NCBI GenBank assembly: GCA_046583315.1
Contig: JAYGCN010000248.1
Span: 1 to 41,372 of the forward strand
Length of the DNA: 41,372 nt
Direction of reading: 5' to 3'
Origin: Candidatus Hydrogenedentota bacterium
GTDB lineage: Bacteria > Hydrogenedentota > Hydrogenedentia > Hydrogenedentales > GCA-2746185
Shown: positions 1,435-28,797 of the stretch, piece after piece
Layout: the number at the start of each line of letters is the position of its first letter
How positions within the stretch are numbered: position 1 is the stretch's first letter
The notes under the pieces: model-generated
Told to the model about the DNA's origin: nothing
What the model saw: only the letters and a program-made list of their open reading frames with translations
The model's database searches: none
Program-made: the position numbers and the translations under genes

Positions 1435-2431
1435 GGAACCCCTCTTTCCAGTCTTTGATGATCGCGTCATTGCCTTGCAATTCGACCACGACTGTGCAAA
1501 ACGCGTTGATCGTCCCCCGCCTACGCGTTGCATGTGCTGTAATTCTAAACAACCTTGAATCCGTCTTGCAATATTTTCGGATGGGATCAAGCGATTCATA
1601 GCTGATTTCGAGTTGTTTACTCATGGTATCGAGCGATCGAAACGCCCGATCGTCTCCTGTGTAGGGAATGCCGTCCGCACCTACACGATATTCGATGATA
1701 CGGGTCAATACGGATTCGTCCAGTTCCGGGATTCGTTCCAGAACGCCCAGGGACGCCGTGTTGACGTTGATGAGTCCGTCGTTCGGGTCGCTCCAGACTG
1801 TAAACAGGGATCGCAACCCATCGCTGTTGCCCTCGCCCATCCAGCTCGTGTAATCAATGTTCGATCCCTCTTCCAGGGTGAGGACCTCGTCAACGGTCAC
1901 GAATCGATAGGGTTGTTGACGGAAATTGGCGGCATCACGACGGGCAAGGATAGCGCCGATGAGCTGGAAATCAAGTTCGTCGATGGATTCAAAGAGTTCG
2001 CGCGGCGCATCATTCAGGGAAATTCGTGCGGAGCAATCGGAGATCGTATACGTGCAGATGTCATCTCCGGATTGTGCTCCTTCGACGGGAGCAAAATAGC
2101 GTGCTTCATTCATAAGGTTAATTCTGCGACTCCAGCGTTGATTGTATGCTGTATAGGGGGCGCTTCGGGGGGAGGTATACCACCCGGGATCGCGATAGGT
2201 GTCGAGCATCTGTTTGTTGCGCAATTCGAGGATCGCGCGCTGTATCGCGCCCCTGGCCATGCCCCGTGCCTGCGCCTGATCCATGCCGTACCAGGCGGCA
2301 CGACGTTCCATCATCGCGCGGTGTGAAAATCCAAGGGTAATGACCGTCAGAATCGCGAGTATCCAGATGACTGTCACGAGTACGAAGCCCTCGTTTTGTC
2401 TGTGGCATCTATTGTTTGATGATGGGCGCAT
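1424..2431 (-). CDS. gspK: type II secretion minor pseudopilin GspK
   Basis: G|FVLVTVIWILAILTVI prepilin-like N-terminus lacking E5; ISLNDA and INVNTAS motifs; start set at ATG 2431, next to the gspJ stop. Confidence 0.9.
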   Translation of the reverse strand: MRPSSNNRCHRQNEGFVLVTVIWILAILTVITLGFSHRAMMERRAAWYGMDQAQARGMARGAIQRAILELRNKQMLDTYRDPGWYTSPRSAPYTAYNQRWSRRINLMNEARYFAPVEGAQSGDDICTYTISDCSARISLNDAPRELFESIDELDFQLIGAILARRDAANFRQQPYRFVTVDEVLTLEEGSNIDYTSWMGEGNSDGLRSLFTVWSDPNDGLINVNTASLGVLERIPELDESVLTRIIEYRVGADGIPYTGDDRAFRSLDTMSKQLEISYESLDPIRKYCKTDSRLFRITAHATRRRGTINAFCTVVVELQGNDAIIKDWKEGFRAS

Positions 2432-2432
2432 A

Positions 2433-3182
2433 TCAGACTTCCCCGCCGTCTTTTTCAAGATCATCGGGAACAAAACTGACATTTCCATCGAACTTGATCG
2501 TTTTGACGAAGCGTGTATCCTGAATTGATTTCGCAGCGTCGTACAGCGTCAATTCAATACGCACTCCGGCGGGAAGACGATCGGTTGCGGTGGGACGTTC
2601 GATGAGCGGGGTCCATATCGGCGGCGCGTCTTGTCGAATGGACGAACCGGGTGTCCATAAATAGGTGAGGCGAACATCAAGCACGCCGTCCGCGATGATG
2701 CGCTCGTACTTTCTTCCGAGTCGCAATGAGGCCTGCGGTCGCGATCCGGCCATGCCCGTGAATTGGGATGCGAGAGGACCTTCTACCGGTCTCTCTTCGC
2801 GTATCAGGTCAGTTCCGTTGAGGTAATAGCGTACCGCGAAAAGGCGTTCTATGGCCAACTCTTCAACGTTCATGGGTTGTATCGCGCTCACAAACGATAC
2901 TTCGTCCGGGAATCCTGAAAAATACGAGACGGCTGAAAGTTGACGTCGGTCGTTGGGAATGCCGGACAGATCGTGCTGCATGATGGCAAACACGCGACGG
3001 GCATCTGTAAAGGTCTTCTCGTTCGCGCTCCCGTTTCGCCAGTGTAATACGGTGGAGTGAAAAGTGGTGTACACACCGATGAGCGCGATGGACATGAGCG
3101 TGGAGGCGACAAGCAGCTCGGCCAGCGTGAACCCCGATTGGGTCGGCAGACGTTTTTGAAGGGTTGACGGAGAGGACATCAT
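2433..3182 (-). CDS. gspJ: type II secretion minor pseudopilin, GspJ-like
   Basis: SG|FTLAELLVAS N-methylation motif; ATG at 3182 overlaps the gspI stop (ATGA). The upstream part of the 528-aa ORF call is spurious. Confidence 0.8.
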   Translation of the reverse strand: MMSSPSTLQKRLPTQSGFTLAELLVASTLMSIALIGVYTTFHSTVLHWRNGSANEKTFTDARRVFAIMQHDLSGIPNDRRQLSAVSYFSGFPDEVSFVSAIQPMNVEELAIERLFAVRYYLNGTDLIREERPVEGPLASQFTGMAGSRPQASLRLGRKYERIIADGVLDVRLTYLWTPGSSIRQDAPPIWTPLIERPTATDRLPAGVRIELTLYDAAKSIQDTRFVKTIKFDGNVSFVPDDLEKDGGEV

Positions 3183-3661
3183 GCGGCTTGCCTCTCGCGT
3201 TGCGGAACATACAGTTTGTCTTCCGGCAGGAGTACTTCCATCGTTTCTTCGAAGGGAAGCTGTCCACGGGACCAGTAGGTAGTAATCGAAATCCGGATCA
3301 ATCGCGATGCACCGTCTATGTAACGGAATGTCTTGAGTGGTTCTCCGTTGGTTGCGATTCGCGGTGGAAACTGAGGACGCGGCACGGGAACAGGCGTGAT
3401 CGAATAGGTGTAACCGAAGCGTCCGCTGCCGTCCTGGAATACGCCTTCTCCTTGTTCCACAAAGACCAGTGGCTGAAGCTCTTTCTCGGTGAGGAATTCT
3501 TCCATGAGCAAGCGGACCTGAGTATAGTCCTGCACTTGACCGCGGGTCAGGATGGCTTGACGTACCACGCCGTGGATCGTAATCGCGCTGATGCCAAGTA
3601 CAACGATAGCGACGGTGGTCTCGATGAGGATATAACCCGCACGGGCGTGTCGATGTCTCAT
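3179..3661 (-). CDS. gspI: type II secretion minor pseudopilin, GspI-like
   Basis: AG|YILIETTVAIVVLG prepilin motif; ATGA overlap with the gspH stop; operon position. Confidence 0.75.
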   Translation of the reverse strand: MRHRHARAGYILIETTVAIVVLGISAITIHGVVRQAILTRGQVQDYTQVRLLMEEFLTEKELQPLVFVEQGEGVFQDGSGRFGYTYSITPVPVPRPQFPPRIATNGEPLKTFRYIDGASRLIRISITTYWSRGQLPFEETMEVLLPEDKLYVPQRERQAA

Positions 3662-4185
3662 GCGTCCTCCTCCGCCCATCGAATCTTTGAGCCTTCCGTG
3701 GAAATGACAAAGACGGTATCTTCTCTAAGATCTCTGAGGCCGAGGACTGCCTCGTCGCACATGCCGTTGGGATAGAAGGCGACATAATAGAGGGACTCCC
3801 CGCCAACCCGACGTGCGCGCGGCTTGGCGAGTTGCAGTGAGTCACCGAGTTTGGTGGATTCAATAAGCATATCCTCAACGAAGTCAAACGAGACCGAGCG
3901 CCCTTCACGCATGACCGCGCGTTCGAGCCAGTAGGTATTGATCGTCGGGGCGAGATAGACCCGGTATTCCACCGCGTCGGTAATCGAGCGTGCCTGTGCA
4001 TACTCCAGCAACCCGGCAAGATTGCGCGCTTCGTTCTCTGCGCGAATTCCCATGAGTGTACCGCGGAAAACCGGCGTCACCATCGCGGTAATCACGGCAA
4101 GCAACGACATGACGATCATGAGTTCCAGCAAGGTGAAACCCGATCGTGATGTCGGTGTGCGACGGTTATTTGGAGCGGAAGGCAT
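3658..4185 (-). CDS. gspH: type II secretion minor pseudopilin, GspH/FimT-like
   Basis: SG|FTLLELMIV motif, 'YAQARSI' helix and C-terminal FYPNG typical of GspH/FimT. Confidence 0.82.
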   Translation of the reverse strand: MPSAPNNRRTPTSRSGFTLLELMIVMSLLAVITAMVTPVFRGTLMGIRAENEARNLAGLLEYAQARSITDAVEYRVYLAPTINTYWLERAVMREGRSVSFDFVEDMLIESTKLGDSLQLAKPRARRVGGESLYYVAFYPNGMCDEAVLGLRDLREDTVFVISTEGSKIRWAEEDA

Positions 4186-4188
4186 GGT

Positions 4189-4599
4189 TTAGTTGCCCTT
4201 CAGTAACCAGTCGGCCACGTCATCTTCTGTGCCTTTTTGACCATCCGGGCCAGCCGAATACAAATCGTACGATTCGGGGTGTCGGCTACCTGGCTTCTCG
4301 TAGATATAGGGCGTTCCCCAAGGGTCTCTGTTGAGATCGCGAATGTACTTTTTCTGTCCAGTGGCAAGCTGGCTCAGTGAATCGGGATAACGGTCGTTGT
4401 TATCCAGCGCAAAGAGATCCAGCGCATTCATATACGATTTGATGTCCCCACTGGCGGCCTTGATCTTCGCGTCGGTGGCACTACCCGCGAAAACCAACAC
4501 CACCATGCCCGCGAGCACGCCAATGATGACGGTGACGAGCATCAGTTCGATGAGAGTGAATCCGACATTGGACTGCATGGATTTTCGTTCTTGTTGCAT
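4189..4599 (-). CDS. gspG: type II secretion major pseudopilin GspG
   Basis: G|FTLIELMLV; DPWGTPYIY and SAGPDGQKGTEDD GspG signatures. Confidence 0.93.
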   Translation of the reverse strand: MQQERKSMQSNVGFTLIELMLVTVIIGVLAGMVVLVFAGSATDAKIKAASGDIKSYMNALDLFALDNNDRYPDSLSQLATGQKKYIRDLNRDPWGTPYIYEKPGSRHPESYDLYSAGPDGQKGTEDDVADWLLKGN

Positions 4600-4610
4600 A
4601 TCCGTTCTCC

Positions 4611-5822
4611 TTAACGTACTTGCGCACTCAGGGTCAGCATGGGCAGTAACATCGCGATGACCATAAAGCCAACGATGATGCCCATCACTACAATGATTAA
4701 AGGTTCCAACAACGCGGTAAATGCTTTCACCGCGCGATCAACTTCCAATTCATAGGTGTCCGCGACGCGTTGGGTGGTGCTGCCCAGTTCTCCAGTCTCT
4801 TCACCGACGGCGAGCATATTGACGACCAGAGGCGGGAAATAAGGCGAGGTTTTCAGGCTTGCGCTTATGCTTTCTCCATCCGAGACGCGGCGATGCACCT
4901 CGTCGAGATCCCGTTTGATGAGTCGATTGGACAAGGTCTCGCGTGTGATCGACAGTGCGGTCAGCACGGGTACGCCGTTATCGAAGAGCGTGCCGAGCGT
5001 GCGAGCGAATTTTGCCATTTCGTATCGCTGGATGAGCCCGCGCACGGTGGGTATTTTAAGCAACCATCCGTCTTTGGTGAACTGGCCAGACTCGGTGCTG
5101 AGGAAGGAGCGAATTCCCATGCCAACGACACCTAGGAATGCCAATACCGCCCACCAGAATTTTCCCATGAAGGCGCTTACTTCAATAACGATTGTCGTGA
5201 TAAGGGGCAGGCTTGCGTCGAAGTCGTCGAAAATGATCACGAACTTAGGGAAAACAAAAGAGACCAGGATGAATATTGTTATCCAACTGATGAGCAGGAG
5301 AAAAGCCGGATAGACCATGGCCCCGATCACCTTGCCGCGCAGCTCTTCATCTTTCTCGCCAAACGAAACCATGCGCCACAGCACCTCGTCAAGCATGCCT
5401 CCGGTTTCGCCGGCACGCGTGAGGCTGGTGTACATCGGCGGAAACACTTTCGGATGACGCGCCAGGGCATCGGCGAAACTGTCCCCGTCGTGTACGGCAT
5501 CGTGCAGGTCTTGCATCAGTGCTTTAAGCTTTGGGTTCTCGGCCTGTTCCGTCAGCGTCGCTAGCGCGCGCAGAATGGGCATACCGGCTTGCATCAAACT
5601 GGCCAACTGGCGAAAGAAGACGTTGCGATCTTTGAGACGAATCCGTTGGAAGGTTTGCCGGATACTTGGGGCTGCTGCGGACTCATCGAATTCCGTAACT
5701 TCGATCGGAAACAACCCGTCGGCACGAAGTTTGGCGATGGCGGCCCGTTGGTTTTCGGCCATCAGACTTCCCGTGACGACTGCCGCCGATTGGTCTTTTA
5801 CTTTATAGGAGAACGTAGGCAT
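4611..5822 (-). CDS. gspF: type II secretion inner-membrane platform protein GspF/PilC
   Basis: MPTFSYK start; FFRQLASLMQAG, AGETGG, YPAF and VGEETGEL...LLEP motifs; three TM segments. Confidence 0.95.
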   Translation of the reverse strand: MPTFSYKVKDQSAAVVTGSLMAENQRAAIAKLRADGLFPIEVTEFDESAAAPSIRQTFQRIRLKDRNVFFRQLASLMQAGMPILRALATLTEQAENPKLKALMQDLHDAVHDGDSFADALARHPKVFPPMYTSLTRAGETGGMLDEVLWRMVSFGEKDEELRGKVIGAMVYPAFLLLISWITIFILVSFVFPKFVIIFDDFDASLPLITTIVIEVSAFMGKFWWAVLAFLGVVGMGIRSFLSTESGQFTKDGWLLKIPTVRGLIQRYEMAKFARTLGTLFDNGVPVLTALSITRETLSNRLIKRDLDEVHRRVSDGESISASLKTSPYFPPLVVNMLAVGEETGELGSTTQRVADTYELEVDRAVKAFTALLEPLIIVVMGIIVGFMVIAMLLPMLTLSAQVR

Positions 5823-5826
5823 CAGT

Positions 5827-7545
5827 TTACTCGTAGGTCGCATCGGTGTCCGCACTGACGCGCAAAACTTCGTCCAGCGTGGTCTCTCCGGATTGGACAC
5901 GCAGCCAGCCCGAATCGCGAAGGCTCCGCATGCCCAGGGAGCGCGCCTTGCGTTTGATTTCTGAAGACGTCGCGGACTGTACGGTAAGTTCTTTTATTTC
6001 TTGTACAAAAGGAAGAATTTCGCAGATGGCGAGACGACCGTGGTATCCGGTTTGTCGGCAATCCTCGCAACCCTGCCCCATTCTGAATCGTCCATCGAGT
6101 ACCTCGCCTTGGGTTAAGTTAAATTCACGCAGTGCCTCGGCGGAAGGCGTGACGGGTTGTGCGCAGGTATCGCAGACTTTGCGGACGAGGCGTTGGGCGA
6201 TCGAGGCGATCATCGTAGAGGCGATAAGGAAGGGTTCGACACCCATATCGATAAGACGCGTAACCGTACCGGATGCGTCGTTCGTGTGCAGAGTACTGAA
6301 GACCAGATGGCCGGTAAGACTCGCGCGAATTGACATCTCAGCGGTCTCGTAGTCGCGAATTTCCCCGACCATCATCACATCGGGGTCGTGGCGCAGCATC
6401 GAGCGCAGTCCCATGCTGAAATCAAAACCAATCTGCGGCATGACCTGCATCTGGGTGATTCCTTTAAGCTGATACTCGATTGGGTCTTCGATGGTAATCG
6501 TTTTTCGATCATCTTTGTTTAATCGGTTCAATGCCGAATAGAGTGTCGTGGACTTTCCGCTACCGGTAGGTCCCGTAACCAGGATAATGCCGTGAGGACG
6601 CTCGATAAATGAGTGAATCTGCTCCAAGTCGTCTTTCATGAACCCGAGTTCGCCCAGCGTCATGAAAATGGATGAGCGGGTCAGGATACGAATGTTCAAG
6701 GTTTCGCCGTAGGGGGTTGGCAACAGAGAAATACGCAGATCGTATTTTTCTCCGGCGAGACTCACCTGTATTTTGCCGTCCTGGGGAAGTCGTTTCTCGG
6801 CAATATTGAGATTCGCCATCACTTTGACGCGGGATACAATGGAGGCCTGAAAACCCAGCACGGTGGACGGCACAGGAACCGCATGCAGTATGCCGTCGAT
6901 GCGATACCGTACGCGCAGCTCGTCCTCGAAAGGTTCAATGTGAATATCGGTCGCGCTGGATTCGATGGCCTCGGCGAATAAGACGTTTACGAATTTAACG
7001 ATCGACGCATCGATGGAATCGTCGCCCAGGTCAGACGCGTATCCGTCGGTTTCCAGGGTGACCTCGTGATCGTCCGTGTTTGCATCTTGAATGATCTGCT
7101 CGACCGTGTCGGCACCGAGTCCGTAGAGTGCGCGCGACGCTTTTTCGATGTCGGATGGTGTGGCAACGACCGCGCGCACAGGACGTTTGAGCACCATGCG
7201 AATTTCGTCTACGAGATTGCTGTCGAGTGGATTGGAGAGGGCGATGATGAGGTGGTTGTCGTCCTGACCAACCGGGACGAAGCCGTAGTGGGTAGCATAT
7301 CGCGCAGGCACTTCGGCCGTGATGGACTCAGGGATCGCGCTCAGATCGCTGGAAATGAATTCGAGTTCACAATAACTGGCCAGAGCACGATAAAGGGGCT
7401 CCGAATTGGACAGCCCGGATTCATTGAGAATCTCGAGCAGCGAACGTCCTTGCGCGCGGGCTTCGGCACTGTAACGATTGAGTGCTTGTTCTGAGAGGAT
7501 CGCTTCGGCGACGATTTGCTGTTCAAAGGCATTCAATACACTCAT
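5827..7545 (-). CDS. gspE: type II secretion ATPase GspE/PilB
   Basis: Walker A GPTGSGKST, TIEDPIEY, DPDVMMVGEIRD, TGHLVFSTLHTN, and the CxxC...CxxC zinc motif. Confidence 0.96.
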   Translation of the reverse strand: MSVLNAFEQQIVAEAILSEQALNRYSAEARAQGRSLLEILNESGLSNSEPLYRALASYCELEFISSDLSAIPESITAEVPARYATHYGFVPVGQDDNHLIIALSNPLDSNLVDEIRMVLKRPVRAVVATPSDIEKASRALYGLGADTVEQIIQDANTDDHEVTLETDGYASDLGDDSIDASIVKFVNVLFAEAIESSATDIHIEPFEDELRVRYRIDGILHAVPVPSTVLGFQASIVSRVKVMANLNIAEKRLPQDGKIQVSLAGEKYDLRISLLPTPYGETLNIRILTRSSIFMTLGELGFMKDDLEQIHSFIERPHGIILVTGPTGSGKSTTLYSALNRLNKDDRKTITIEDPIEYQLKGITQMQVMPQIGFDFSMGLRSMLRHDPDVMMVGEIRDYETAEMSIRASLTGHLVFSTLHTNDASGTVTRLIDMGVEPFLIASTMIASIAQRLVRKVCDTCAQPVTPSAEALREFNLTQGEVLDGRFRMGQGCEDCRQTGYHGRLAICEILPFVQEIKELTVQSATSSEIKRKARSLGMRSLRDSGWLRVQSGETTLDEVLRVSADTDATYE

Positions 7546-7594
7546 GGATTACTCCGTAGATTCCCCGATACTGCTAACCGTGCCTTCAGATGGT

Positions 7595-8611
7595 TCACTG
7601 CGCTCGCAATCCCGAAAGGGATAGCTCGGCTGCTCTGGCCAGAACGGTCACCGGACCAGCCTCAACTTCTTCGAGCAAGGTGCGGGCTTTTTCAGGTTGA
7701 TTCGCCTCGTTCCAGTAATAGCGTCCCAGTTCCAGTTTGAATTGGGCCAGAATAATGGGATTTTCCTCTTGCGCTAAGGCAAGCTCCATCGCGGCTTCGA
7801 AGGCGTTTTCATCAGCGTTGTCCACAAATGATTTTTCCGCAATGAGACGCGCCATCTGTTCGACCGCTTCCGAGGCGTGCAAGGTGCCCGGATAATGCTG
7901 GATGTATTCGCCGTAGGTACCGGCGCGACCATCCAGCTGGACGCGATCCCATTCGTGCAGCAACGTAAAACGCTCATCAATCACGCGTGCCTCGTCGAGT
8001 AAGGCGAAGCGGCGGATGTCTTCTCCCGAATTGCGGAAGGATTCAGGAAACGTCGAGCGCATGAGGCTATAGGCTTCGTAGGCCTCCGGGTACCATTTTA
8101 ATTCGTCGAAGGCCAGACGTGCCAACGCGATTCGATTCTCACTGGTTTCGAAAGTCTGGGGATTGGTGGTCATGGCTTCGTTTAACCAGACAAATGCACG
8201 TGCGAACTCGTCCTGCTCCATAAGACGTGTGAATTGGGCAGGATGAGCCGCCAATGTAGCGGTCATCTGTGAATCACTCGATGAGTTTGAGTCGACTGCG
8301 GTAAATTGGATATATCCAACGGGTACGGCGATCAGCAGCAACGCGGCCATTGAAATCAAGCCGAGGCGGCGACCGAAGAGTCGGCGTCCGGTATTCGAGC
8401 GGATTTGGGCTTCGATAGCGGGACGCAGATCGGCATTCATGGCTACAGAGCCGGCAGGAATCGATTCGACGATTTTCTTCAGCGCAGTTATCTCGTTCGC
8501 GCACGACGCGCAATTCGCCACGTGTTCATTAAGTCGATTGGCATCGAATTCATGCAGCGATTCGTACAGCGATTGCGCGATTAGTCCTTCAAACTCGTCA
8601 CAGGCACTCAT
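7595..8611 (-). CDS. zinc-binding (ZAS/zf-HC2) transmembrane anti-sigma factor with TPR-like periplasmic domain
   Basis: HVANCASC (HxxxCxxC) near the N-terminus, a single TM helix, a helical TPR-like C-terminus; starts 1 nt after the ECF sigma stop. Confidence 0.85.
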   Translation of the reverse strand: MSACDEFEGLIAQSLYESLHEFDANRLNEHVANCASCANEITALKKIVESIPAGSVAMNADLRPAIEAQIRSNTGRRLFGRRLGLISMAALLLIAVPVGYIQFTAVDSNSSSDSQMTATLAAHPAQFTRLMEQDEFARAFVWLNEAMTTNPQTFETSENRIALARLAFDELKWYPEAYEAYSLMRSTFPESFRNSGEDIRRFALLDEARVIDERFTLLHEWDRVQLDGRAGTYGEYIQHYPGTLHASEAVEQMARLIAEKSFVDNADENAFEAAMELALAQEENPIILAQFKLELGRYYWNEANQPEKARTLLEEVEAGPVTVLARAAELSLSGLRAQ

Positions 8612-8612
8612 A

Positions 8613-9200
8613 TTATCGTAACTCCTCTACTGAATCGGCCAACTCTACTCGCAATTTGCGAAGTGCGCGAAACAGATGTACTTTGACGCTCCCCAGGGAG
8701 CATTCCAGCGTGTCTGCGATTTCCTGCAGGCTCATCTCGTCGTAATGCCTCAACATAAACACTTGGCATTGCATCTTCGAGAGAACCTCCAGCGCTTCAC
8801 GAACGTGCGCGTCAATCTCGTTGTGGCGGGCACTGTCTTCCGGCGTGTCCACAGAGGCTGATTCAGCCCCGTCGAAATCATGCTCAGAAACAATGACTCT
8901 ACGTTTGCGATTCAACCGACGTGCTTCGTCGATGGCCGCATTCGTCGTCAGCCGCATCAACCAGCCGCCAAAGGGTCCGGTGGGCTTCCATGCACCGATT
9001 CGCTCGTAGGCCCGGAACAGAGCCGTCTGTGCGACATCGAGTGCTTCTTCGCGGTTGCCTGTGTAGCGATAGGCAATCGCATAGACCCGACCTTGGTACC
9101 GTTCTACCAAGGGGCCGAAAGCACTGTCGTCACCCTCCTGAACGGCTTTGGCCAGTTCTTCGTCTGACGGTCCTGTCATTTGATCAGAATCCGCATTCAC
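8613..9200 (-). CDS. ECF (group 4) RNA polymerase sigma factor
   Basis: SDEEL...GDDSAFGPLVERY, region 2 'EALDVAQ...WLMRLTTNAAID' and region 4 'SLQEIADTLECSLGSVKVHLFRALRKLR'. Start placed at GTG 9200 (uncertain). Confidence 0.93.
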   Translation of the reverse strand: MNADSDQMTGPSDEELAKAVQEGDDSAFGPLVERYQGRVYAIAYRYTGNREEALDVAQTALFRAYERIGAWKPTGPFGGWLMRLTTNAAIDEARRLNRKRRVIVSEHDFDGAESASVDTPEDSARHNEIDAHVREALEVLSKMQCQVFMLRHYDEMSLQEIADTLECSLGSVKVHLFRALRKLRVELADSVEELR

Positions 9201-9206
9201 TGCTAA

Positions 9207-9234
9207 AACGAAGCTCCGACGCAATTGGTTGACA
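9207..9234 (-). promoter_or_regulatory. putative ECF-dependent autoregulatory promoter
   Basis: Minus strand TGTCAACC-N16-CGTT matches the AAC/CGT ECF consensus and lies 6 nt upstream of an in-frame GTG of the sigma gene. Confidence 0.55.
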
Positions 9235-19121: not shown

Positions 19122-19206
<85 letters not shown>

Positions 19207-19355: not shown

Positions 19356-21266
19356 TTAAAGCGTCAGTGCGACGAGCTGGGCCGGATTCGTGCCTACGGA
19401 GACTACCACGTATTGCTTTCCGCCATGCATATAACTCATTGGCACGCCCGTTGCATCGCCTGGCAGTGGAAACGCGGCGATGAGCTCTCCGGTACGTTTG
19501 TCGAAGGCGCGCAGGTTCGGAGAACCTCCACGGGCGGAACCTGACCGTCCTGAGCCTTCCGTAACGAATAAGAGGCTCTTCGTGACCATCGCAGCAGCTC
19601 GCGCATTGGAACCGAGTGGGGGCAGATTCAGGTCTTTCAGGCGAGGGTGATCAATTGGACCGTCTCCCCCATTTACTGCAGACCAGACTTTCGTGCCGGC
19701 GTTCATATCCAGCGCGACGATTTCGGCGTATGGCCCTTTCAAAAGCGGCAAACCGTCCGGACCCTCCATGGGCGCGCGTGAACGGGTATATCGGAAGTTA
19801 GATCGCGCCGGATCGGGTTTGTCTACCGCTATCACGGATGGATGATTCATCGCGGGAACAAAAAGGAACCCAGTCTCAGGATCATACGCGGCTCCTGGCC
19901 AGTTCGCCCCGCCGCCGTATCCCGGAAGAATGATCGTGCCTTGGGTGACGACCGGCGGCGTGAAGAGTGGTCCAATATTGAAGGTGTCGATGATTGCGAG
20001 AGCCTCCTCGCGCAGTTCCGGTGTGAAATCGATTACGTCATCGCGACTCACGCCTTGCCGCGCAAAGGGTGGCGGTTTCGTTGGAAAGGGTTGCGTCGGC
20101 GAGGTGCGTTCACCTGGCACGGTAGACTGCGCAACGGGTCGCTCTTCAATAGGCCAGACTGGTTTTCCGGTGGCGCGATCAAAAACGAAGGTGAATCCGT
20201 ATTTCGTCACTTGCGCGACGGCCTTGATCGTTTTACCATCGACCGTGATGTCCATCAGATTTGGTGCACACGGCAAGTCATAATCCCACAACCCATGATG
20301 CACCATCTGAAAATGCCATACGCGTTTACCCGTTTTGGCATCGAGGCATACGAGACTTTCGCTGAATAGCCCATCGCCCAACCGATGGCCGCCGTAGAAG
20401 TCATTGGTCGGTGTGCTGGTTGGAAGATAGACGTATCCCAGCTCAGCATCGGCACTGATAGAGGACCACACGTTCGCGCTGCCCGTGTATTCGTTCGATC
20501 TATTCTCCCAAGTCGCCGCGCCAAATTCGCCGGGTTGCGCAATCGTGTTAAAGGTCCAATTGAGCTTTCCCGTGCGCGCGTCGAAGCCTTTGACCTGACC
20601 CGGCGTGCCTTCCTTGACTGGAGGACCGTCCGAAATGGACGAACCTACCACGATAGTTCCATTCAGAATGATTGGTGCCGAAGGATGACCATAGCCCCGT
20701 GCTCGGCGTGCTCGCGGAACGCCTTCCAGCAGGTCCGCACGACCCGCATCACCGAATTCATTCACGAGTTTGCCCGTGTCCGCATTCAGCGCGATCAACC
20801 AAGAGTCACTGGTCGACATGAAAATGCGGCGGTCGTCGCCATCGGCCCAATAGCCCACGCCGCGACTGATATAGCCTAGATTCGGAGGTCGACCCGTTCG
20901 GTAGGCTTCGGAACTATACGACCACAGCGTCTCCCCCGTGCCCGCGTCAATCGCCATAGCCTGACCCAGCGAAGTGCTGCCATATAACACGCCATCCACG
21001 AGTAGCGGGGTTAATTCAAAATACGTCGCGTTCGCCACCTGTGGATTGTCAGAGTTTTCCTTTTGAATCTGAGCGTCGATAGATTCCCACGTCCACGCAA
21101 CCGACAAGTCCCCCACGTTGTCATGATTAATCTGGTCCAAGGGCGCATACTTCGTCGACCCCAAATCGCCGCCATACGACAGCCACGCATCGCCGGAGGT
21201 GCCGTGTTGGGCGGAAGAAAGAGAAGATACAACGAGAAAGATTGTTAAAAGTCCAAGGCCCTTCAC
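19356..21266 (-). CDS. exported PQQ-dependent dehydrogenase (glucose/quinate dehydrogenase-like, no membrane domain)
   Basis: Signal peptide; YAPLDQINHDNVGDLSVAW, TPLLVDG, RGVGYW, NVWS, VHHGLWDYD and SPTQPFP motifs; repeated tryptophan-docking motifs; TAGTG overlap with the upstream gene. Confidence 0.92.
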   Translation of the reverse strand: MKGLGLLTIFLVVSSLSSAQHGTSGDAWLSYGGDLGSTKYAPLDQINHDNVGDLSVAWTWESIDAQIQKENSDNPQVANATYFELTPLLVDGVLYGSTSLGQAMAIDAGTGETLWSYSSEAYRTGRPPNLGYISRGVGYWADGDDRRIFMSTSDSWLIALNADTGKLVNEFGDAGRADLLEGVPRARRARGYGHPSAPIILNGTIVVGSSISDGPPVKEGTPGQVKGFDARTGKLNWTFNTIAQPGEFGAATWENRSNEYTGSANVWSSISADAELGYVYLPTSTPTNDFYGGHRLGDGLFSESLVCLDAKTGKRVWHFQMVHHGLWDYDLPCAPNLMDITVDGKTIKAVAQVTKYGFTFVFDRATGKPVWPIEERPVAQSTVPGERTSPTQPFPTKPPPFARQGVSRDDVIDFTPELREEALAIIDTFNIGPLFTPPVVTQGTIILPGYGGGANWPGAAYDPETGFLFVPAMNHPSVIAVDKPDPARSNFRYTRSRAPMEGPDGLPLLKGPYAEIVALDMNAGTKVWSAVNGGDGPIDHPRLKDLNLPPLGSNARAAAMVTKSLLFVTEGSGRSGSARGGSPNLRAFDKRTGELIAAFPLPGDATGVPMSYMHGGKQYVVVSVGTNPAQLVALTL

Positions 21267-22915
21267 TATTCGAACTCCAAAACCGTCACGGGCAATACAA
21301 GCGCACTCGAATACTTCGCATCGTGATGTACGGCGTTGACGGCGATTTTCGGTTTCAGTTTAGAGCTACCCGGTGCTTCGCCTGTGTTCGGGTTTACTTC
21401 GAACCTTGGAAAATTGCTGGACGAGATGTGCACGGCGATCTTGTGGCCCTTTTCGAAGGTCATGGACATGTTCCACAGATCGATCACCATCAGTTCGGGT
21501 TTGCCCGGTGTCATCATGCGAATATCCCCCGGTTCGCGACCGTCTCGGTAGCGAGTCCGAATCGGCGTGTCCAGCACGATGGCTTCGTAACCATCCGGAT
21601 ACACGTCAACCAGTTTAACCATGAAGTCGGTATCCACAGCATCCGTGGAGGCCCATAACTCGAACTCGATGCGTCCCTGTATCGTCACGTCGTCTTCGAG
21701 CGCTGGTGTCGTGAATCGCAGGTAATCCTGGCGATCCGGTATCTCGCGCTGATCGACCGGTCCTACGCGTATGGGGAAATCCCTGGGAAAGTTATTGTAG
21801 TTCGCGCCGCCGACTGTGGGAATCGGGTTCGCTGGATCGAAGGTGTAGGAGGTCGCGGATTCCGGGTTGGTAGGTCGCGCGGTCGATAGCGAATTGTCTG
21901 ACGTCAGATAGAACCGCGTGTCCTTTGATACCGGCGGCCATTGATCCGTCTCGAAGAACCGATTCTTGTCCGATACTGCACCCTTGCGTGCCGATGCGAT
22001 GTGGTGATACGTCATCGCGGGTTCATCCATAATGCCGTTCTGTTCACCCTTGAGCCAATAGTTGAACCAGCGCATTTCCTCGTCGAATCCTCGGTCCAGC
22101 CCGATTGCATCCGGGTATTCCAAATCCCCATGCAACGGCGAATGCGCCCACGGCCCCATCCAGAGTTTCTGATTACCCTTCGCCCCCTCGCGACCATGAT
22201 ACTGCAAGGCGACAAAGTTATTGACCGCCCCCTTCGCGAACATGTCATACCATCCACCGAAGTTGTACATCGGAATATCGATATTGTGACGATGATGTAT
22301 GAGATCCGTAGCCTTCCATTTCTCATCCGAGATCACGCGCGCCTTCAAACTTGGAATCTGATCGGAGGCACCTGTCAGGCGCATGAAGTTGCCGCGGAAA
22401 TGTTCTCGGAATACGCCGCCCATATAATACGATTCATTGAACAACGATTCGGGCGCGGTCACGATATACCCGGCTACCAAATGCGGCGGATCAGCGGCGG
22501 CGGCAAGATTCGTGCAGATGCCCATGGCCGAGCGACCCGACATGCCGACCTTACCATTGCTCCACGACTGCTCGGCAATCCATTCAACGATGTCGTAACC
22601 GTCCTCCATGTCATCTTGGTAGGGTTCATATACGCCGTCCGAGGTGTGTTTGCCCCGGCAATCCTGCGTGACGAAGGCGATCTGTTCATCCAGGTATCTG
22701 GAGGCGCGCCGATTGTAGCGTTTCATGTTGTAGGGCGTGCGGGTGAGTACGACGGGCCAGGGCCCATCGCCCTCGGGGAGATAAATATTCGTGCCCAGCA
22801 TTACGCCATCACGCATCGGCACTATTAGGTGCTCCGGAACCGGGTATTCTTGTTCCTGCGCCACGGTGCTCAGCGGAATCATAAGTAGACAGAAAAGTAC
22901 AATCGACCTGCGCAT
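21266..22915 (-). CDS. exported CocE/NonD family serine hydrolase
   Basis: Signal peptide; PMRDGVML, RTPY, QDCRG, GRSAMG nucleophile elbow, GWYD, GPWAH, and C-terminal SSSNFPRF. Confidence 0.92.
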   Translation of the reverse strand: MRRSIVLFCLLMIPLSTVAQEQEYPVPEHLIVPMRDGVMLGTNIYLPEGDGPWPVVLTRTPYNMKRYNRRASRYLDEQIAFVTQDCRGKHTSDGVYEPYQDDMEDGYDIVEWIAEQSWSNGKVGMSGRSAMGICTNLAAAADPPHLVAGYIVTAPESLFNESYYMGGVFREHFRGNFMRLTGASDQIPSLKARVISDEKWKATDLIHHRHNIDIPMYNFGGWYDMFAKGAVNNFVALQYHGREGAKGNQKLWMGPWAHSPLHGDLEYPDAIGLDRGFDEEMRWFNYWLKGEQNGIMDEPAMTYHHIASARKGAVSDKNRFFETDQWPPVSKDTRFYLTSDNSLSTARPTNPESATSYTFDPANPIPTVGGANYNNFPRDFPIRVGPVDQREIPDRQDYLRFTTPALEDDVTIQGRIEFELWASTDAVDTDFMVKLVDVYPDGYEAIVLDTPIRTRYRDGREPGDIRMMTPGKPELMVIDLWNMSMTFEKGHKIAVHISSSNFPRFEVNPNTGEAPGSSKLKPKIAVNAVHHDAKYSSALVLPVTVLEFE

Positions 22916-22982
22916 AAAAAACGCTCCCTGGTCACCAAGACCAGAGAGCATCATAACGTGTTCGTTTTCGATCCGCAAACAG

Positions 22983-24176
22983 CTAATCCGTGTCTCCAAC
23001 AACGGCGTCTCCATCATCGTAAATATACTCGAAAATGCCAAACATCATCTCGTCGGTCGACTGAAGCCCGAACCCTACATTGCGCGTCGGATCGGGGTTA
23101 TTGGGGTTGTTCGCCGAATTGTCGTAGTGAGCCGTGATTTCGATTTCAGAGCCGGCGGGAACGGAAATAGGTTTTTCCGGATAGTAAAACAGCTGCCAAT
23201 TGAAATCATACTTGGGCACGCTCAGGAGAATGTCTGCTCTCTTATTGTCCATGAGCGCCGTAAATCGCATATCTTTGCCCCGTAAGTGCATGTGCGGGAA
23301 CAACGATATGATTTTGATGTCTTCCTCCACGTACCAGGCATCTATCTCTTCATGATTCTCAGCGCCAGCAGGAATAAAAAACGAATACGATCCGGCGAGA
23401 GCGGCATGCACTTCGTGTTGCAATTTTCCCTCACCATGATAAAGCCCGATGCGCGTCGTATCCGTCGTCGCCGTGCCGTTCGGATGATAATGCATGTTGG
23501 TCATGAGCGTCTGGCCGTTGCGCAGTTTGCGCCCCATGCCCTTGGGATAGACATTCGGTGCTGTGCCCAAGGCCCACGTGCCAAGCACATTGAAATCGTT
23601 TCCCATTCCGCTGCCGAAGCCGTTCATAAAAATAACGACGTGGTGTGCAACATCCATGTTACTCGGGCGAATTTCGATAGCCTGAATCCATTGTGACTCA
23701 TCCACCTCGGCCTTAAAACTCAGATTCGGAAAGTAGTCGGTTCCTTCAGCGGGAATGTTTACGGTCGGCAGTTCGATAATCGCATCCGGTTCGCCCCGTT
23801 GCCATCCGGACGTAAACGTCGGCATCTCCGGCATGTCCTTGGGATTCCCGCGCGGAGCTCCAGCATTCACCCACTTAACGATCGCCTTGATTTCCTTGTC
23901 GGTCAGGCTCGCGTCATTGGAGAAGGTACCGTGCGCAGGATCGGCAAACCAAGGCGGCATCTCGCGGCTTGACACTTTTTCCTTGATCGCTTTGGCCCAG
24001 GGTCGGGTCTCATCGTAATTACGCAACGACATCGGGGCCACTTCCCCCGCGCGATGACAAGTCACACAATTCTCGAATAGAATTGGCGCGATGTCCTTGG
24101 TGTAGGTAATTTGGGCGGCGTGGGCACCGAAACTACACAGGAATAAAAAGATAAGACTTAGGGATAAGCTGCGCAT
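22983..24176 (-). CDS. exported c-type cytochrome / copper type II (PHM/DBH-like) monooxygenase fusion, soluble form
   Basis: AGAGGAG RBS; signal peptide; CVTCH and MPPW; HHVVIF and MHYH; PHMHLRG and DEMM. Confidence 0.85.
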   Translation of the reverse strand: MRSLSLSLIFLFLCSFGAHAAQITYTKDIAPILFENCVTCHRAGEVAPMSLRNYDETRPWAKAIKEKVSSREMPPWFADPAHGTFSNDASLTDKEIKAIVKWVNAGAPRGNPKDMPEMPTFTSGWQRGEPDAIIELPTVNIPAEGTDYFPNLSFKAEVDESQWIQAIEIRPSNMDVAHHVVIFMNGFGSGMGNDFNVLGTWALGTAPNVYPKGMGRKLRNGQTLMTNMHYHPNGTATTDTTRIGLYHGEGKLQHEVHAALAGSYSFFIPAGAENHEEIDAWYVEEDIKIISLFPHMHLRGKDMRFTALMDNKRADILLSVPKYDFNWQLFYYPEKPISVPAGSEIEITAHYDNSANNPNNPDPTRNVGFGLQSTDEMMFGIFEYIYDDGDAVVGDTD

Positions 24177-24180
24177 GGAT

Positions 24181-25581
24181 TTAGCTCCTCTGAGAGTTTG
24201 TCTGCCTCCTCTTATACAGAAAAAGCAGCAGAAAACCAAATCCCGCAACCACAGAGACGATGAGGGGTATAAGGATCTCCTGAGATCGTTGCGCCTGGGC
24301 TATCTCCATTCGGATCTCTGCACGTCTTTTTTCATGACGTTTCTGCAGTAATGCGGTCTCTATTTTGTCGTGATAGCCAATATCGATGGGCATATCTGAC
24401 GTGTACTCAAAAATCCCGAACATCATTTCATCATCAGAATTTTCCCCGTACGATATCTCGAGCTGAGGATTCGGATTGTCCGGGTTGCCCGCCGAATTAT
24501 CGAAGTGGCCGACGACATCGATGATCGTATCTTTTGGAATAAACTTGGGCGTTTCCAGATAATAGAAATACTGCCAATTAAACCTGTAATTGGGAACATT
24601 CAACAAAATCTCGCTGTTGCCATCCGGATAGGTGGCCGTGTAAACCATGTCTTTTCCGCGATAGTGCATATGTGGAAAAAACGAGCGGATCGTTAAGTCC
24701 GCAGGAGTCTTCCAGCGACCTCTAACCTCATGATTGTTCGCGTAGGGCGGAATTGTGAGTTCGAAATCTCCAATCCGAATTCCATGAAGGTCCTTTCCCA
24801 TTTCGCCCTCGCCGAAATACAATCCGACGTGGGTGATGTCGGTCCCCTCTTCGCCATAAGGATGGTAATGTTGGCTGATGACAATTTTTTCTGAGGGCCC
24901 GATGCGGCGACCGGTTCCCGGAGGGTAAATATTGGGCGGGGTATCAACGGCCCACACGCCGAGGACCGCATAGTCAGAGTTCTGGTCGCGTGCATGGCTC
25001 CCATCCAAAAAAACGACGCTGTGATGCACCCCATTGCGATTCTCGGGGCGGATCTCAACAGCACGCACCCAACGCGATCCGTCTGTTTCCAGCACAGCGC
25101 GTAAGGGTACTTTAAGATCTTCACCTTCAGCGGGAATCACTACTTCCGGAGTGGAGACCAGATAGTCGGGCTCACCGAGTTGCCATCCGTTCGTGAAGAC
25201 TGGGAGTTCGGGCAGGTCCTTCGGATCGCCGAGTAGCGCACCCTGATCCACCCAATCAATAATGACCTGAATTTCTTCATCGGACAACGAAGGGTCGTTT
25301 GAGAACACCCCGTGTTGTGGATCGGCAAACCAGGGCGGCATCGCTCGATTAAAGACCTGTTCACGAATGGCTTTTGCCCATGGTCGCGTCTCTAAATAGG
25401 AACGTAGCGACATAGGGGCTGCGGTATCGGGTCGATGACACGATACGCAATGCTCGAACATGACCGGTGCCACATGCTCGGTATAGGTTACCCGATCGGC
25501 GCGCGCAACATTTGTGAACAATCCGATCAATCCGGCTATCGCGATCAGGGGGATCGCTCTCAGTTTCTCGGAATTGATCAT
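24181..25581 (-). CDS. exported c-type cytochrome / copper type II monooxygenase fusion with C-terminal membrane anchor
   Basis: Signal peptide; CVSCH and MPPW; HHSVVF and QHYH; PHMHYRG and DEMM; C-terminal TM ILIPLIVSVVAGFGFLLLFLY followed by KRR. Confidence 0.85.
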   Translation of the reverse strand: MINSEKLRAIPLIAIAGLIGLFTNVARADRVTYTEHVAPVMFEHCVSCHRPDTAAPMSLRSYLETRPWAKAIREQVFNRAMPPWFADPQHGVFSNDPSLSDEEIQVIIDWVDQGALLGDPKDLPELPVFTNGWQLGEPDYLVSTPEVVIPAEGEDLKVPLRAVLETDGSRWVRAVEIRPENRNGVHHSVVFLDGSHARDQNSDYAVLGVWAVDTPPNIYPPGTGRRIGPSEKIVISQHYHPYGEEGTDITHVGLYFGEGEMGKDLHGIRIGDFELTIPPYANNHEVRGRWKTPADLTIRSFFPHMHYRGKDMVYTATYPDGNSEILLNVPNYRFNWQYFYYLETPKFIPKDTIIDVVGHFDNSAGNPDNPNPQLEISYGENSDDEMMFGIFEYTSDMPIDIGYHDKIETALLQKRHEKRRAEIRMEIAQAQRSQEILIPLIVSVVAGFGFLLLFLYKRRQTNSQRS

Positions 25582-25604: not shown

Positions 25605-26738
25605 CTAGGTTAATACTTTCATGTGCGCCAAATCAAAGGCCACAATTTCGTCTTCTTTGCTGGCTTGTACTTTGTTCGCCCAAGCAGGGTCGGACAACAA
25701 CGCGCGCCCTACCGCCACCAAATCGAACTCGTCGTTCTCGAATCGTGTGATCAGGTCATCGATACTCGTCGGTGCCGCTTCCTTGCCCGCGTAGGAACGA
25801 AGAAAATCCGAATCGAGTCCGATGCTGCCCACTGTAATTGACGGTTTACCTGTGAGCTTTTTGGTCCATCCAGCGAGATTCAGATCGGAACCCTCGAACT
25901 CCGGCTCATCAAAGCGACGTTGGCTACAGTGGAAGTAATCCACGCCTGCATTCGACAGCGGCATCAGGAAGGCTTCGAGCGCTTCGGGCGTCGGTGCCAT
26001 CTTGTGCGAATAGTCGCCCTGCTTCCACTGTGAGAAGCGGAACACAATCGGGAAGTCGTCGGACACGTTTGCGCGCATGGCTTCGATAATTTCTACCGCA
26101 AAACGAGTACGCTGCGGCAAGTCGCCACCGTATTCGTCGCTACGCTGATTCGTCGCTTCCCAGAAAAACTGGTCAATCAGGTAGCTGTGCGCCCCGTGAA
26201 TTTCAATGCCGTCCATACCAATCGCCTCCGCGTCTTTCGCGGACTGACCATAGGCAGCAACACATTGCGCGATTTCTTCCTTTGTTAATGCATGTGCAGG
26301 AACAGCATCTTCCTTCTTCGCCAGCGACGGATGCACCACCGCAGACGGACCTACCGGCGTAGCATCTGGATCCGGTCCCACACCCGGTTGACGGATGCTA
26401 CCTACATGCCAAATTTGAGGAATGATAAATCCGCCGCCTGCATGCACTTCGTCTACAACCTTTTTCCAACCTGCCAGGGCGTCTTCGCCGTAGAAATTCG
26501 GCACGTCGGGATAGCCATGATTACCCGTAAATTCGGGAGGTGTACCCTCGGTAATAATGAGTCCAACGCCACCTTCAGCCCGGCGACGGTAATACGCGGC
26601 GACCTCATCACTCGGCACGTTGCCCGGCGATTGACTGCGTGTCATCGGTGCCATCGCGATTCGATTCGGCAATGTCACTTTTCCGAATGCGTAGGGCTTA
26701 AATAATGAGTCAACACTTACTTGGGTAGTCTCTGACAT
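25605..26738 (-). CDS. NADH:flavin oxidoreductase (old yellow enzyme family)
   Basis: NRIAMAPMTR, GLIITEG, QIWHVG, EIHGAHSYLIDQF, NQRSDEYGG and VGRALL motifs. Confidence 0.95.
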   Translation of the reverse strand: MSETTQVSVDSLFKPYAFGKVTLPNRIAMAPMTRSQSPGNVPSDEVAAYYRRRAEGGVGLIITEGTPPEFTGNHGYPDVPNFYGEDALAGWKKVVDEVHAGGGFIIPQIWHVGSIRQPGVGPDPDATPVGPSAVVHPSLAKKEDAVPAHALTKEEIAQCVAAYGQSAKDAEAIGMDGIEIHGAHSYLIDQFFWEATNQRSDEYGGDLPQRTRFAVEIIEAMRANVSDDFPIVFRFSQWKQGDYSHKMAPTPEALEAFLMPLSNAGVDYFHCSQRRFDEPEFEGSDLNLAGWTKKLTGKPSITVGSIGLDSDFLRSYAGKEAAPTSIDDLITRFENDEFDLVAVGRALLSDPAWANKVQASKEDEIVAFDLAHMKVLT

Positions 26739-26754: not shown

Positions 26755-27480
26755 CTATCGATAGGTTAATAAATCGGGCTTATTCACAAAATGGGGCGTC
26801 GCATTGAAGGCGTCCAGCGTCACCCGGTCCGCATTACTGAATGTAAAATCCGTCAATGAAGCGTTGCGAACCCGCCAATTCAGTTTCGCTGCCTGTAGCT
26901 CAGGAGCCTGCAACACCGTCTGCACGCTCACTCCAATCGGGCCTCCAGACGTAAACACCGCCACACGCCGTCCGGACCCGCCTTTGTCCATGATTTCCCT
27001 CAACGAATCCCGCACTCCACCGGCAAATTCCGCCCAAGTGGAGATGGAATCCGTCTCATATTCTTTATGAACCCACTTGTCCATTATCGCCTCCAACAGG
27101 CGGTGAAAGCTCTTGTACTTGTGCCCGGATTCCGTCGCACCAGAGTAATCATCACTCAGCACCTTAATCTCCGGATACTTCTCGCACAATTCGGGAAGTA
27201 GCACCCCCATCACCTGATCTGAAGGATATTCATTCAAGGCGGCCATCGTCTGAATCTCGGGATAGTCGAGCCCCTGCTCCAGAAACGGCCCGCCCGCGCA
27301 CTCCGCCGTACGCGTCTGACGTTTCAACGTGCCCACATACACCTCGTCAAAGGCGGTCCCCATTTCAATCCAGTGCCGGCCCAGCACCCGGGACTGCTCC
27401 TCACCGAGTTCTGACAACTTGTCATAATCATCCGAAAAAAAACTCGCCTGTCCATGTCGAACCAGCGTCAATATACTCAT
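26755..27480 (-). CDS. histidine phosphatase (phosphoglycerate mutase-like) family protein
   Basis: LVRHGQASF, GTLKRQTRTA, LNEY, VFTSGGPI and NAS motifs. Confidence 0.92.
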   Translation of the reverse strand: MSILTLVRHGQASFFSDDYDKLSELGEEQSRVLGRHWIEMGTAFDEVYVGTLKRQTRTAECAGGPFLEQGLDYPEIQTMAALNEYPSDQVMGVLLPELCEKYPEIKVLSDDYSGATESGHKYKSFHRLLEAIMDKWVHKEYETDSISTWAEFAGGVRDSLREIMDKGGSGRRVAVFTSGGPIGVSVQTVLQAPELQAAKLNWRVRNASLTDFTFSNADRVTLDAFNATPHFVNKPDLLTYR

Positions 27481-28149: not shown

Positions 28150-28797
28150 ATGTACATCGGCCGCATCGTTTCTGTAGCCAAGACGCCGGATGACCGCATC
28201 GTTGCGTCCTACCGCGTGTCCAGCCGCTCATTTCCCAACCGCAAGGCCGTGATTACAGGTGATAAAGTGAGTATCGTGCCCAAAGAGGGGCATGAAGGCG
28301 ATATCTACAAGAACCCGTACATCGCCTACAACTGCGTGCGCGTGGTCAATGATGGTAATATCGCCATCGTCACCAACGGCTCCCAGACGGACCCCATTGC
28401 CGAGAAAATCATCTTGGGCATGCCCATTCGCGACGCGCTTGTCCTTTCTTCGTTGGCGCTGGATTATGAAAAAGACGACTACAATACGCCGCGTGTGAGT
28501 GCTGTCGCGGATCGCGCGAACAACACGGGGTGGCTAGCCGTCGTGCGCGACAATGGACTCGAGGTGCGCGAGATGCCCCTTGAAGCCGGAAAGTTTTTCT
28601 ATGTGGCCACCTATGAAGAGAATAGTCTAGCACTGGATCAGTCTGGAGACTACGACGCGAACTCCGCCGATGAAGCCTGCGACTTTATCATCGGCAAAGG
28701 CATATTCGCCGACCGCGAGAAACCGGTGACCTCCGTGGCCGCCGTCGCACAGGCCGAAGGATTTGAACTCGCCTCCAAAGACGTTACGCCCGAATAA
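28150..28797 (+). CDS. purO: archaeal-type IMP cyclohydrolase
   Basis: MYIGR, YRVSSRSFPNR, NPYIAYNC, NGSQTDPI, DYEKDDYNTPR and ATYE are PurO signatures; AAGGAG RBS; adjacent to purB. Confidence 0.92.
   Translation: MYIGRIVSVAKTPDDRIVASYRVSSRSFPNRKAVITGDKVSIVPKEGHEGDIYKNPYIAYNCVRVVNDGNIAIVTNGSQTDPIAEKIILGMPIRDALVLSSLALDYEKDDYNTPRVSAVADRANNTGWLAVVRDNGLEVREMPLEAGKFFYVATYEENSLALDQSGDYDANSADEACDFIIGKGIFADREKPVTSVAAVAQAEGFELASKDVTPE

Follow-up and report, generated by a model that had tools for sequence, protein, structure and literature searches.

Bacterial heme-fused relatives of PHM and DBH and their genomic association with PQQ dehydrogenases in a Hydrogenedentota genome

Introduction

Monooxygenase chemistry of the PHM/DBH type is treated as eukaryotic (PMC8812541). 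The route by which electrons reach and cross the two copper sites of these enzymes, and the role of ascorbate beyond copper reduction, are debated (PMC12164859). Here we analyse a 41,372-nucleotide stretch of DNA, hereafter the window, from Candidatus Hydrogenedentota bacterium (assembly GCA_046583315.1). The window is one whole contig (JAYGCN010000248.1; G000:C74) of a 4.65 Mb genome in 355 contigs. It carries a row of four genes for two related proteins, A and B, a CocE-type hydrolase and a pyrroloquinoline quinone (PQQ) dehydrogenase. Judged from sequence and modelling, A and B are exported fusions of a heme c domain with a PHM-type two-copper core, copper binding being predicted.

PHM, the core of PAM (PDB 1SDW, 1PHM, 3MLL), shares with A and B the double jelly-roll, an aligned HH/H/HxH pattern, an EM at the place of the CuM Met, an equivalent of Gln272 and secretion. 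A and B are nevertheless only 18-20% identical to it; they carry a fused c-type heme, have no disulfide cysteines in the copper core and lack Arg240. Their family is bacterial and reaches about 40 paralogues per genome. DBH (PDB 4ZEL) has the same copper core and, like A and B, an extra N-terminal domain and no Arg at the Arg240 position. DBH, however, is eukaryotic and ascorbate-driven. Its N-terminal domain is DOMON; that of A and B is a cytochrome c.

A second set of precedents concerns electron supply. A fungal PQQ enzyme drives a lytic polysaccharide monooxygenase (LPMO) through its cytochrome domain (PMC5960967), and a bacterial LPMO is reduced by a c-type cytochrome (PMC8981238). The fungal system, CcPDH (AA12/AA8 with AA9), resembles what we propose in its extracytoplasmic logic, which runs from PQQ enzyme through cytochrome to copper oxygenase. 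In the fungal case the dehydrogenase carries the cytochrome, a b-type one, and the LPMO that serves as oxygenase has a single copper (PMC5960967), whereas here a c-type heme sits on a predicted two-copper oxygenase and the PQQ enzyme is eight-bladed and belongs to the glucose dehydrogenase clade. The likeness is one of analogy, not homology.

A preliminary description of the window had proposed a self-contained periplasmic module of four genes, in which the fused heme replaces ascorbate and is reduced by the adjacent PQQ enzyme. We find that the heme-fused bacterial family is a variant of the known PHM/DBH enzymes and that its statistical tie to PQQ dehydrogenases is real. The row itself is a local arrangement, not a fixed unit. 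The best overall explanation, to which we give a probability of roughly one half, is that A and B are heme-fed two-copper monooxygenases wired many-to-many to PQQ donors.

Results

Heme domain and copper core of A and B

Protein A contains C45-x-x-C48-H49 (CVSCH), M81PPW, H186H187, H238, H304xH306 and E385M386. The corresponding motifs of B, which is 49% identical to A, are C37xxC40H41 (CVTCH), M73PPW, H178H179, H229, H295xH297 and E376M377. Two Pfam profiles, Cytochrom_C and Cu2_monoox_C, both score above cut-off in B, which is predicted to be a soluble, signal-peptide-bearing protein of 397 residues. Near the C-terminus of A a hydrophobic helix spans about residues 435-456, with KRR after it, and A is therefore probably membrane-anchored; the helix recurs in a metagenomic homologue (P0128) that is 72% identical to A.

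In the AlphaFold model of B (pLDDT 85.5, pTM 0.80), residues from about 21 to 110 form a helical domain, alongside two beta-sandwiches. Every top Foldseek match of this model is PHM or DBH, with an E value of 5.7e-14 to PHM. In an independent structure search (VIA, 48,161 chains), the model superposes on PHM 1sdw with Z 17.6 and a root-mean-square deviation of 2.9 over 245 residues; DBH scores Z 13.8, and the next unrelated family, PNGase F, at most 8.5. The helical domain matches the monoheme cytochrome PccH weakly in the same search (Z 6.9). Through its identity to the modelled B, A can be assigned the same two-domain core.

Single-sequence searches of the PDB reached PHM only weakly (E 0.02), so that a diverse profile was needed. 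Built from 61 diverse homologues, this profile finds DBH and PHM at E values of about 1e-11 (DBH 4.9e-12). In its alignment the HH, HY and HxH of the family fall on the HH, QVHY and HTH copper ligands of PHM, and the Gln of the family's FNWQ is aligned with the Gln of PHM LPQ, which we read as Gln272. The CuM Met (M377 in B, M386 in A) lies beyond the printed alignment and was assigned by its conservation and its position inside the structurally aligned range. The five His copper ligands thus match PHM, and we infer the equivalence of the CuM Met. Among the 61 homologues nine of the ten heme and copper ligands are invariant and the CuM Met is at least 90% conserved. The invariant CxxCH and distal Met, the predicted export and the maturation genes of the host mark the N-terminal domain as a class I monoheme cytochrome c. 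The motifs, the PHM/DBH-type copper core and the fused c-type heme reported in the preliminary description all hold up against these data.

PHM uses Arg240 to form a salt bridge with the carboxylate of the peptidylglycine substrate (PMC12164859). This position is Phe in A and B (Phe293 in B) and varies across paralogues; an Arg is found there in one of the 41 family members of this genome, itself copper-less. Because the Arg240 equivalent is absent, PAM-like peptide amidation is disfavoured, and A and B would be PHM/DBH-like enzymes but not peptide-amidating PHM. Pfam gives no NHL or PAL-type match among the 31 window proteins, the rest of the genome not having been searched for PAL.

Size and variants of the family

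The profile matches 23,251 clusters at 50% identity, 5,589 of them at E <=1e-30, and 7,452 of 8,000 candidates scored as homologues. Members are annotated in the sources as thiol-disulfide isomerase, redoxin or cytochrome c. Among named sequences, the nearest homologues of B (68-69%) are labelled Candidatus Hydrogenedentota, and the look-alikes in the Atlas are only unnamed clusters of the same heme-copper family. A literature search found no study of the bacterial heme-fused family, most subscription journals and supplements being outside its reach; PMC10028931, taken up as a possible paper on the family, was a false lead (pHMM).

About 1% of the genes in this genome belong to the family. All ten heme and copper ligands are present in 32 of its 41 members; of the other nine, 7 are fragments and 2 span the full length but have no copper ligands. 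Matches occur in 13 of 13 relatives of the same taxonomic family (1 to 39 per genome) and number 0 to 11 in the order's other families. Among 120 longer homologues listed, 18 consist of two complete heme-copper cores joined head to tail (P0271-P0288). These echo the A-B tandem and suggest that tandem genes of this kind may form heterodimers. The fusions seen in longer homologues involve redoxin, EF-hand, TPR, tandem monooxygenase (MO) cores, one alpha/beta hydrolase and one NHL propeller. Elsewhere the neighbours of family members encode enoyl-CoA hydratases, alpha/beta hydrolases, a carotenoid oxygenase, short-chain dehydrogenases and TetR; as a lead only, they point to the breakdown of organic compounds that are lipid-like or resistant in other ways.

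Two further members of this genome are irregular. One, of 925 residues (G000:C76:2385-5165, L069), retains the heme motif but not the copper ligands and has a complete member downstream of it. Another (G000:C299:34802-36232) is in two pieces, with the heme part and the copper part 4 nt apart, the result of either a frameshift or a natural split.

A heme-only paralogue beside PQQ genes

The paralogue at G000:C93 (1834-5439, L062) keeps CxxCH and MPPW and has lost all six copper ligands. It has gained a Cys-rich N-terminal domain (WCPVTD, WESCCQFCN), and Pfam offers no name for it beyond weak cytochrome c matches. Its orthologues (L179, L180, L183, L184; 40-53%) are likewise without copper ligands, the contig of one of them ending ahead of the last ligand. 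In five of the seven genomes that have it, spread over two families, the heme-only paralogue lies directly downstream of a PQQ gene of the same clade; in one of them (G052) that gene is the genome's only close-clade PQQ match. This is the widest-spread pairing that we found. Since the pair is kept without an oxygenase site, it fits a role for the heme domain as docking partner and electron acceptor of the PQQ dehydrogenase.

Loss of the copper ligands can also be read differently: the PHM scaffold might be used for other redox work, as an oxidase, a reductase or an electron-transfer hub, with copper optional and hydroxylation no part of it. Two full-length paralogues did lose the copper ligands and keep the heme, one of them conserved in seven genomes, and the Phe of A and B at the Arg240 position, variable across paralogues, would suit such a use. 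The CuH and CuM sets and the Gln272 equivalent are nonetheless conserved together across 30-45% identity, and a pocket whose residues vary while the ligands stay fixed is in keeping with a family of enzymes that act on many substrates. We regard a non-hydroxylase family as very improbable.

The family lies near PQQ dehydrogenase genes more often than expected

Six of the 19 PQQ genes in this genome, a count that excludes two short matches, have a family member within 3 kb, compared with 4.6% of 1,119 long open reading frames (p 1.3e-4). Without the copper-less partner the figure is 5 of 20 (p 1.2e-3). When the 50 paralogue families with at least four members are ranked by proximity, PQQ comes second (6/20) behind a secreted DUF2911-like family (4/4); a family of 42 with sulfatase-like sequences has two near family members. 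The PQQ genes of five relatives were sorted by their score and identity to the row's enzyme: of the 37 in its close clade 13 have a member within 3 kb, of the 22 others none has, and the background is 2.7-4.7%; dropping copper-less partners leaves 10 of 37. Five Acidobacteria genomes contain 104 members, of which 13 have a PQQ gene within 3 kb where circular shifts lead one to expect 4.8 (p 0.0025); the PQQ list used there was the best 150 of 226, and one genome (G033) contributed contig C1 only. In a quick tree the PQQ-adjacent members are spread over several clades, and the pairing has therefore arisen or persisted repeatedly. The link between the family and PQQ dehydrogenases is non-random, moderate and not obligate, and it is weaker in Acidobacteria. 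The preliminary description had proposed a test for co-occurrence with both PQQ and CocE genes. It is seen with a clade of heme-less PQQ dehydrogenases and not with CocE, which is found at 2 of 78 outside loci, in both as a close orthologue with the gene order unchanged; these two loci are not independent of the relatives.

Some other gene arrangements were noted. An MO-MO-DUF2911-PQQ operon (G000:C307:2962-8550, L061; L190-L194), with two copper-type members, a secreted DUF2911-like gene and a PQQ gene, is kept in this genome and in all five relatives examined, and is better conserved than the row. All four members of the secreted DUF2911-like family (G000:C231, C165, C303, C307) have a monooxygenase gene within 3 kb. 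At G000:C344:797-7307 (L060) a run consists of an MO, a CxxCH-bearing Vgb-lyase-like propeller, a PQQ dehydrogenase and a second MO, with a di-heme peroxidase gene nearby.

The hydrolase and the dehydrogenase of the row

The hydrolase scores 363 bits against TIGR00976 (cut-off 66), and its triad (S129, D224, H258) and oxyanion Y62 are intact, as in CocE and the alpha-amino acid ester hydrolases. It is predicted to be an exported serine hydrolase of the CocE/NonD family, differing from the described enzymes in its export and in an Ala after the nucleophile where CocE has Tyr. One further CocE copy in the genome stands beside DinB genes.

The PQQ dehydrogenase (Pfam PQQ match 642 bits) is an exported, eight-bladed member of the glucose dehydrogenase clade, without heme, membrane anchor or vicinal disulfide. 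Its score against TIGR03074, the model for membrane-bound PQQ glucose dehydrogenase, is 381 bits, below the cut-off of 833. It is 34% identical to E. coli Gcd, and when it is mapped on that enzyme the PQQ and metal-binding residues and the catalytic Asp are present. The kept positions are E217, R266, D354, W404, D466, D468 and K493, which we take to have their catalytic roles; the five-helix membrane anchor, H262, N355, H775 and C230/C265 are missing. With the triad and these active-site residues in place, the identities first given to the two enzymes stand. A D-x-D motif is a lanthanide marker for PQQ dehydrogenases (PMC11996626, which also describes marine Pseudomonadales rich in PQQ enzymes), and D-x-D genes of the glucose dehydrogenase clade are abundant in soil bacteria (bioRxiv 10.64898/2026.07.10.737718). 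The row's enzyme carries D328-Y-D330, a candidate lanthanide site. E. coli Gcd has D-M-D at the equivalent place, so the motif does not discriminate in this clade.

The genome also holds genes for cofactor supply and respiration. Besides about 20 PQQ paralogues it has pqqBCDE on contig C143, away from the row, two Cytochrom_C_asm matches, one cytochrome b and five matches to heme-copper oxidase subunit I (G000:C262, C97, C329, C342, C351; the estimated contamination of the genome is 5.4%). The match on C329 lies just downstream of a monooxygenase gene.

The four-gene row is a local arrangement

The full quartet is present in no other genome searched. The MO-CocE-PQQ triple is intact in two relatives of one genus (G008 and G012, whose orthologues are mutual best matches), broken in four and cut by a contig end in G013. 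The order in G008 is phosphatase-APH-nucleoside hydrolase-MO-CocE-PQQ-TPR-tig, and G012 follows it until the contig ends inside PQQ. The broken cases include G001, a relative from the genus of the source (84% complete), in which the MO directly precedes tRNA-Leu-tig. In G006 a GH26 gene follows the MO and the PQQ orthologue lies before tig on another contig; in G011 CocE is followed by a TPR gene, without PQQ; and G005, with the closest PQQ match (62%), has neither MO nor CocE in 15.6 kb. CocE-PQQ order is kept in L206. No family member stands beside the 20 metagenomic CocE loci, many of which are short; one of these loci (75%) is followed by the PQQ orthologue.

The history of gene A agrees with this variability. 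Thirteen relatives of the same taxonomic family lack a separate orthologue of A, and in a quick tree A nests in the B clade (support 96) on a long branch, 1.38 versus 0.26 for B. It appears to be a fast-evolving local duplicate, private to this genome among those searched.

Could the row still be a dedicated pathway, a single transcript whose four products act in series on one substrate? The tight spacing, the 1-nt overlap, the export of all four products, the MO-CocE-PQQ order in G008 and G012 and the CocE-PQQ order in L206 would all be expected of it. Unrelated cytoplasmic genes and tig, however, are equally syntenic in the same relatives, so that the two intact cases may be plain synteny. 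The four broken loci, the privacy of A, the near absence of CocE from family loci elsewhere and a terminator-like hairpin ahead of CocE are all contrary to this pathway, and we think it improbable. As a conserved module the quartet is rejected, and the self-containment asserted in the preliminary description fails on a further count: other contigs carry the pqq genes and those for cytochrome c assembly. CocE is best seen as a lineage-restricted neighbour that may act on related esters or amides, and not as a required part.

Layout and surroundings of the row

Table 1. Positions in the window of the row and its flanking features
Feature	Position	Strand	Basis
tRNA-Leu, then tig-clpP-clpX-lon; fixed anchor downstream of the variable gene row	19122..19206	-	
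PQQ dehydrogenase (636 aa, GTG start)	19356..21266	-	ORF (open reading frame) calling
CocE hydrolase (549 aa)	21266..22915	-	ORF calling
Stem-loop in B/CocE gap	22920..22952	-	Folding energy vs shuffles
Gene B (397 aa from first ATG)	22983..24176	-	ORF calling
Gene A (466 aa)	24181..25581	-	ORF calling
Old-yellow-enzyme family NADH:flavin oxidoreductase, cytoplasmic	25605..26738	-	Profile matches
Histidine-phosphatase family protein, first gene of the co-oriented run; syntenic in relatives	26755..27480	-	Profile matches

The open reading frames reproduce the four consecutive, co-oriented genes first described, with gaps of 4 nt (A/B) and 67 nt (B/CocE) and a 1-nt TAGTG overlap (CocE/PQQ). The signal peptides reported for all four products are seen again: each has a Sec-like N-terminus with a basic start, a hydrophobic core and small residues before the predicted cut, as called from hydropathy and by eye, not by a dedicated predictor. 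The co-oriented run extends unbroken upstream of A through the old-yellow-enzyme gene (23 nt away) and the histidine phosphatase gene (16 nt further), whose products have no signal peptides.

A hairpin fills the B/CocE gap, with a 14-bp stem followed by a U-run (-31.4 kcal/mol, z -3.3; 1 of 200 shuffles equally stable). The likely ribosome-binding site of CocE (GGAG) sits in its 3' arm. The element is a candidate intrinsic terminator or translation-gating element; it is not recognisable in the equivalent gaps of G008 and G012. A promoter scan was uninformative (9 sites vs 7.6 expected). A recent horizontal island or tRNA integration was considered and rejected, as GC content is flat at 51-56% and the genes lie 5' of tRNA-Leu.

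Two other regions of the window were noted. An IMP cyclohydrolase of the archaeal type, PurO, is encoded in this bacterial genome at positions 28150-28797 (+); it scores above the TIGR01922 cut-off, and purB lies downstream of it. Positions 1424-9224 (-) hold an ECF sigma factor and a putative zinc-finger anti-sigma factor; the genes after them belong to type II secretion or a pilus (PulE/PulF-like, N-methylation motif, GspK-like).

Discussion

We propose that A and B work in the periplasm as non-coupled two-copper monooxygenases, each with a cytochrome of its own through which electrons enter. A low-spin His/Met heme would take single electrons from periplasmic partners and hand them to CuH; that the heme thereby replaces ascorbate seems to us very likely. 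Activation of O2 at CuM and hydroxylation there of a C-H bond in a small, non-peptide organic molecule is likely as well, if a little less so. The donor pool would most plausibly include the co-expanded heme-less PQQ dehydrogenases, the row's own enzyme among them, because these lack an acceptor of their own and recur as neighbours of family members. For this last part the odds are about even. Were the PQQ enzymes to oxidise the alcohol or carbinol product, as they possibly do, they would return the two electrons spent by the oxygenase. With 41 family members and some 20 PQQ enzymes, the wiring would be many-to-many across the genome and not a dedicated circuit of one operon.

A number of observations weigh against this explanation. 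Enzymes of the glucose dehydrogenase clade classically reduce quinones, not cytochrome c. No PQQ gene lies within 3 kb of 32 of the 41 members in this genome, although the fragmented assembly hides some, or of 91 of the 104 members in Acidobacteria, and PQQ is found at 9 of 78 outside loci. The p-values overstate the case, since the neighbour cases collapse to about five locus types and the relatives are not independent. The Acidobacteria excess vanishes at 1.5 kb (5 vs 3.2 expected, p 0.21), and at 3 kb only one of the five genomes (G031) is significant alone. One family (f4) has the monooxygenase in 7 of 20 genomes and a close-clade PQQ enzyme in none, and one genome (G009) has six PQQ enzymes and no copper-type member at cut-off. 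A Rosetta-stone fusion with a PQQ enzyme was sought and none was found in 120 listed of 200 longer matches, nor in 30 long representatives scanned. Finally, the pairing of a copper-less paralogue with PQQ means that the link need not involve oxygenation.

Much of this would follow if the fused heme were reduced from the quinol pool, by way of a bc1-type complex and soluble cytochromes, and the PQQ enzymes clustered with the family as the next step of catabolic routes, feeding quinone. The cytochrome b in the genome, the probable membrane anchor of A and the many other catabolic enzymes among the neighbours are in keeping with it, as are the members without a PQQ neighbour and the lineages that have the family without this PQQ clade. 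What it leaves unexplained is the heme-only paralogue directly behind a PQQ gene in two families, including the genome with a single close-clade match. We hold supply from the quinol pool to be rather unlikely, and continue to prefer heme-fed monooxygenases with PQQ enzymes among their donors.

If that preference is extended to whole lineages, Hydrogenedentota and Acidobacteria might possess a periplasmic network in which dozens of heme-fused PHM-type monooxygenases hydroxylate inert organic compounds, while dozens of PQQ enzymes, possibly lanthanide-using, dock on the fused heme and give back to it the electrons gained from oxidising the products. We offer this network tentatively and consider it doubtful as a whole. 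If true, it would be a redox-neutral loop without need of ascorbate or NADH, and the copper-less, heme-only paralogues would be its outlets to the respiratory chain.

A soluble bacterial version of 397 residues with a built-in heme would make electron entry accessible to spectroscopy and serve as a readily expressed model for the PHM/DBH enzymes. For the organism, the share of its genes given over to the family suggests that a major way of oxidising organic matter has gone unrecognised, and the family may explain the purpose of the PQQ dehydrogenase expansions in such bacteria.

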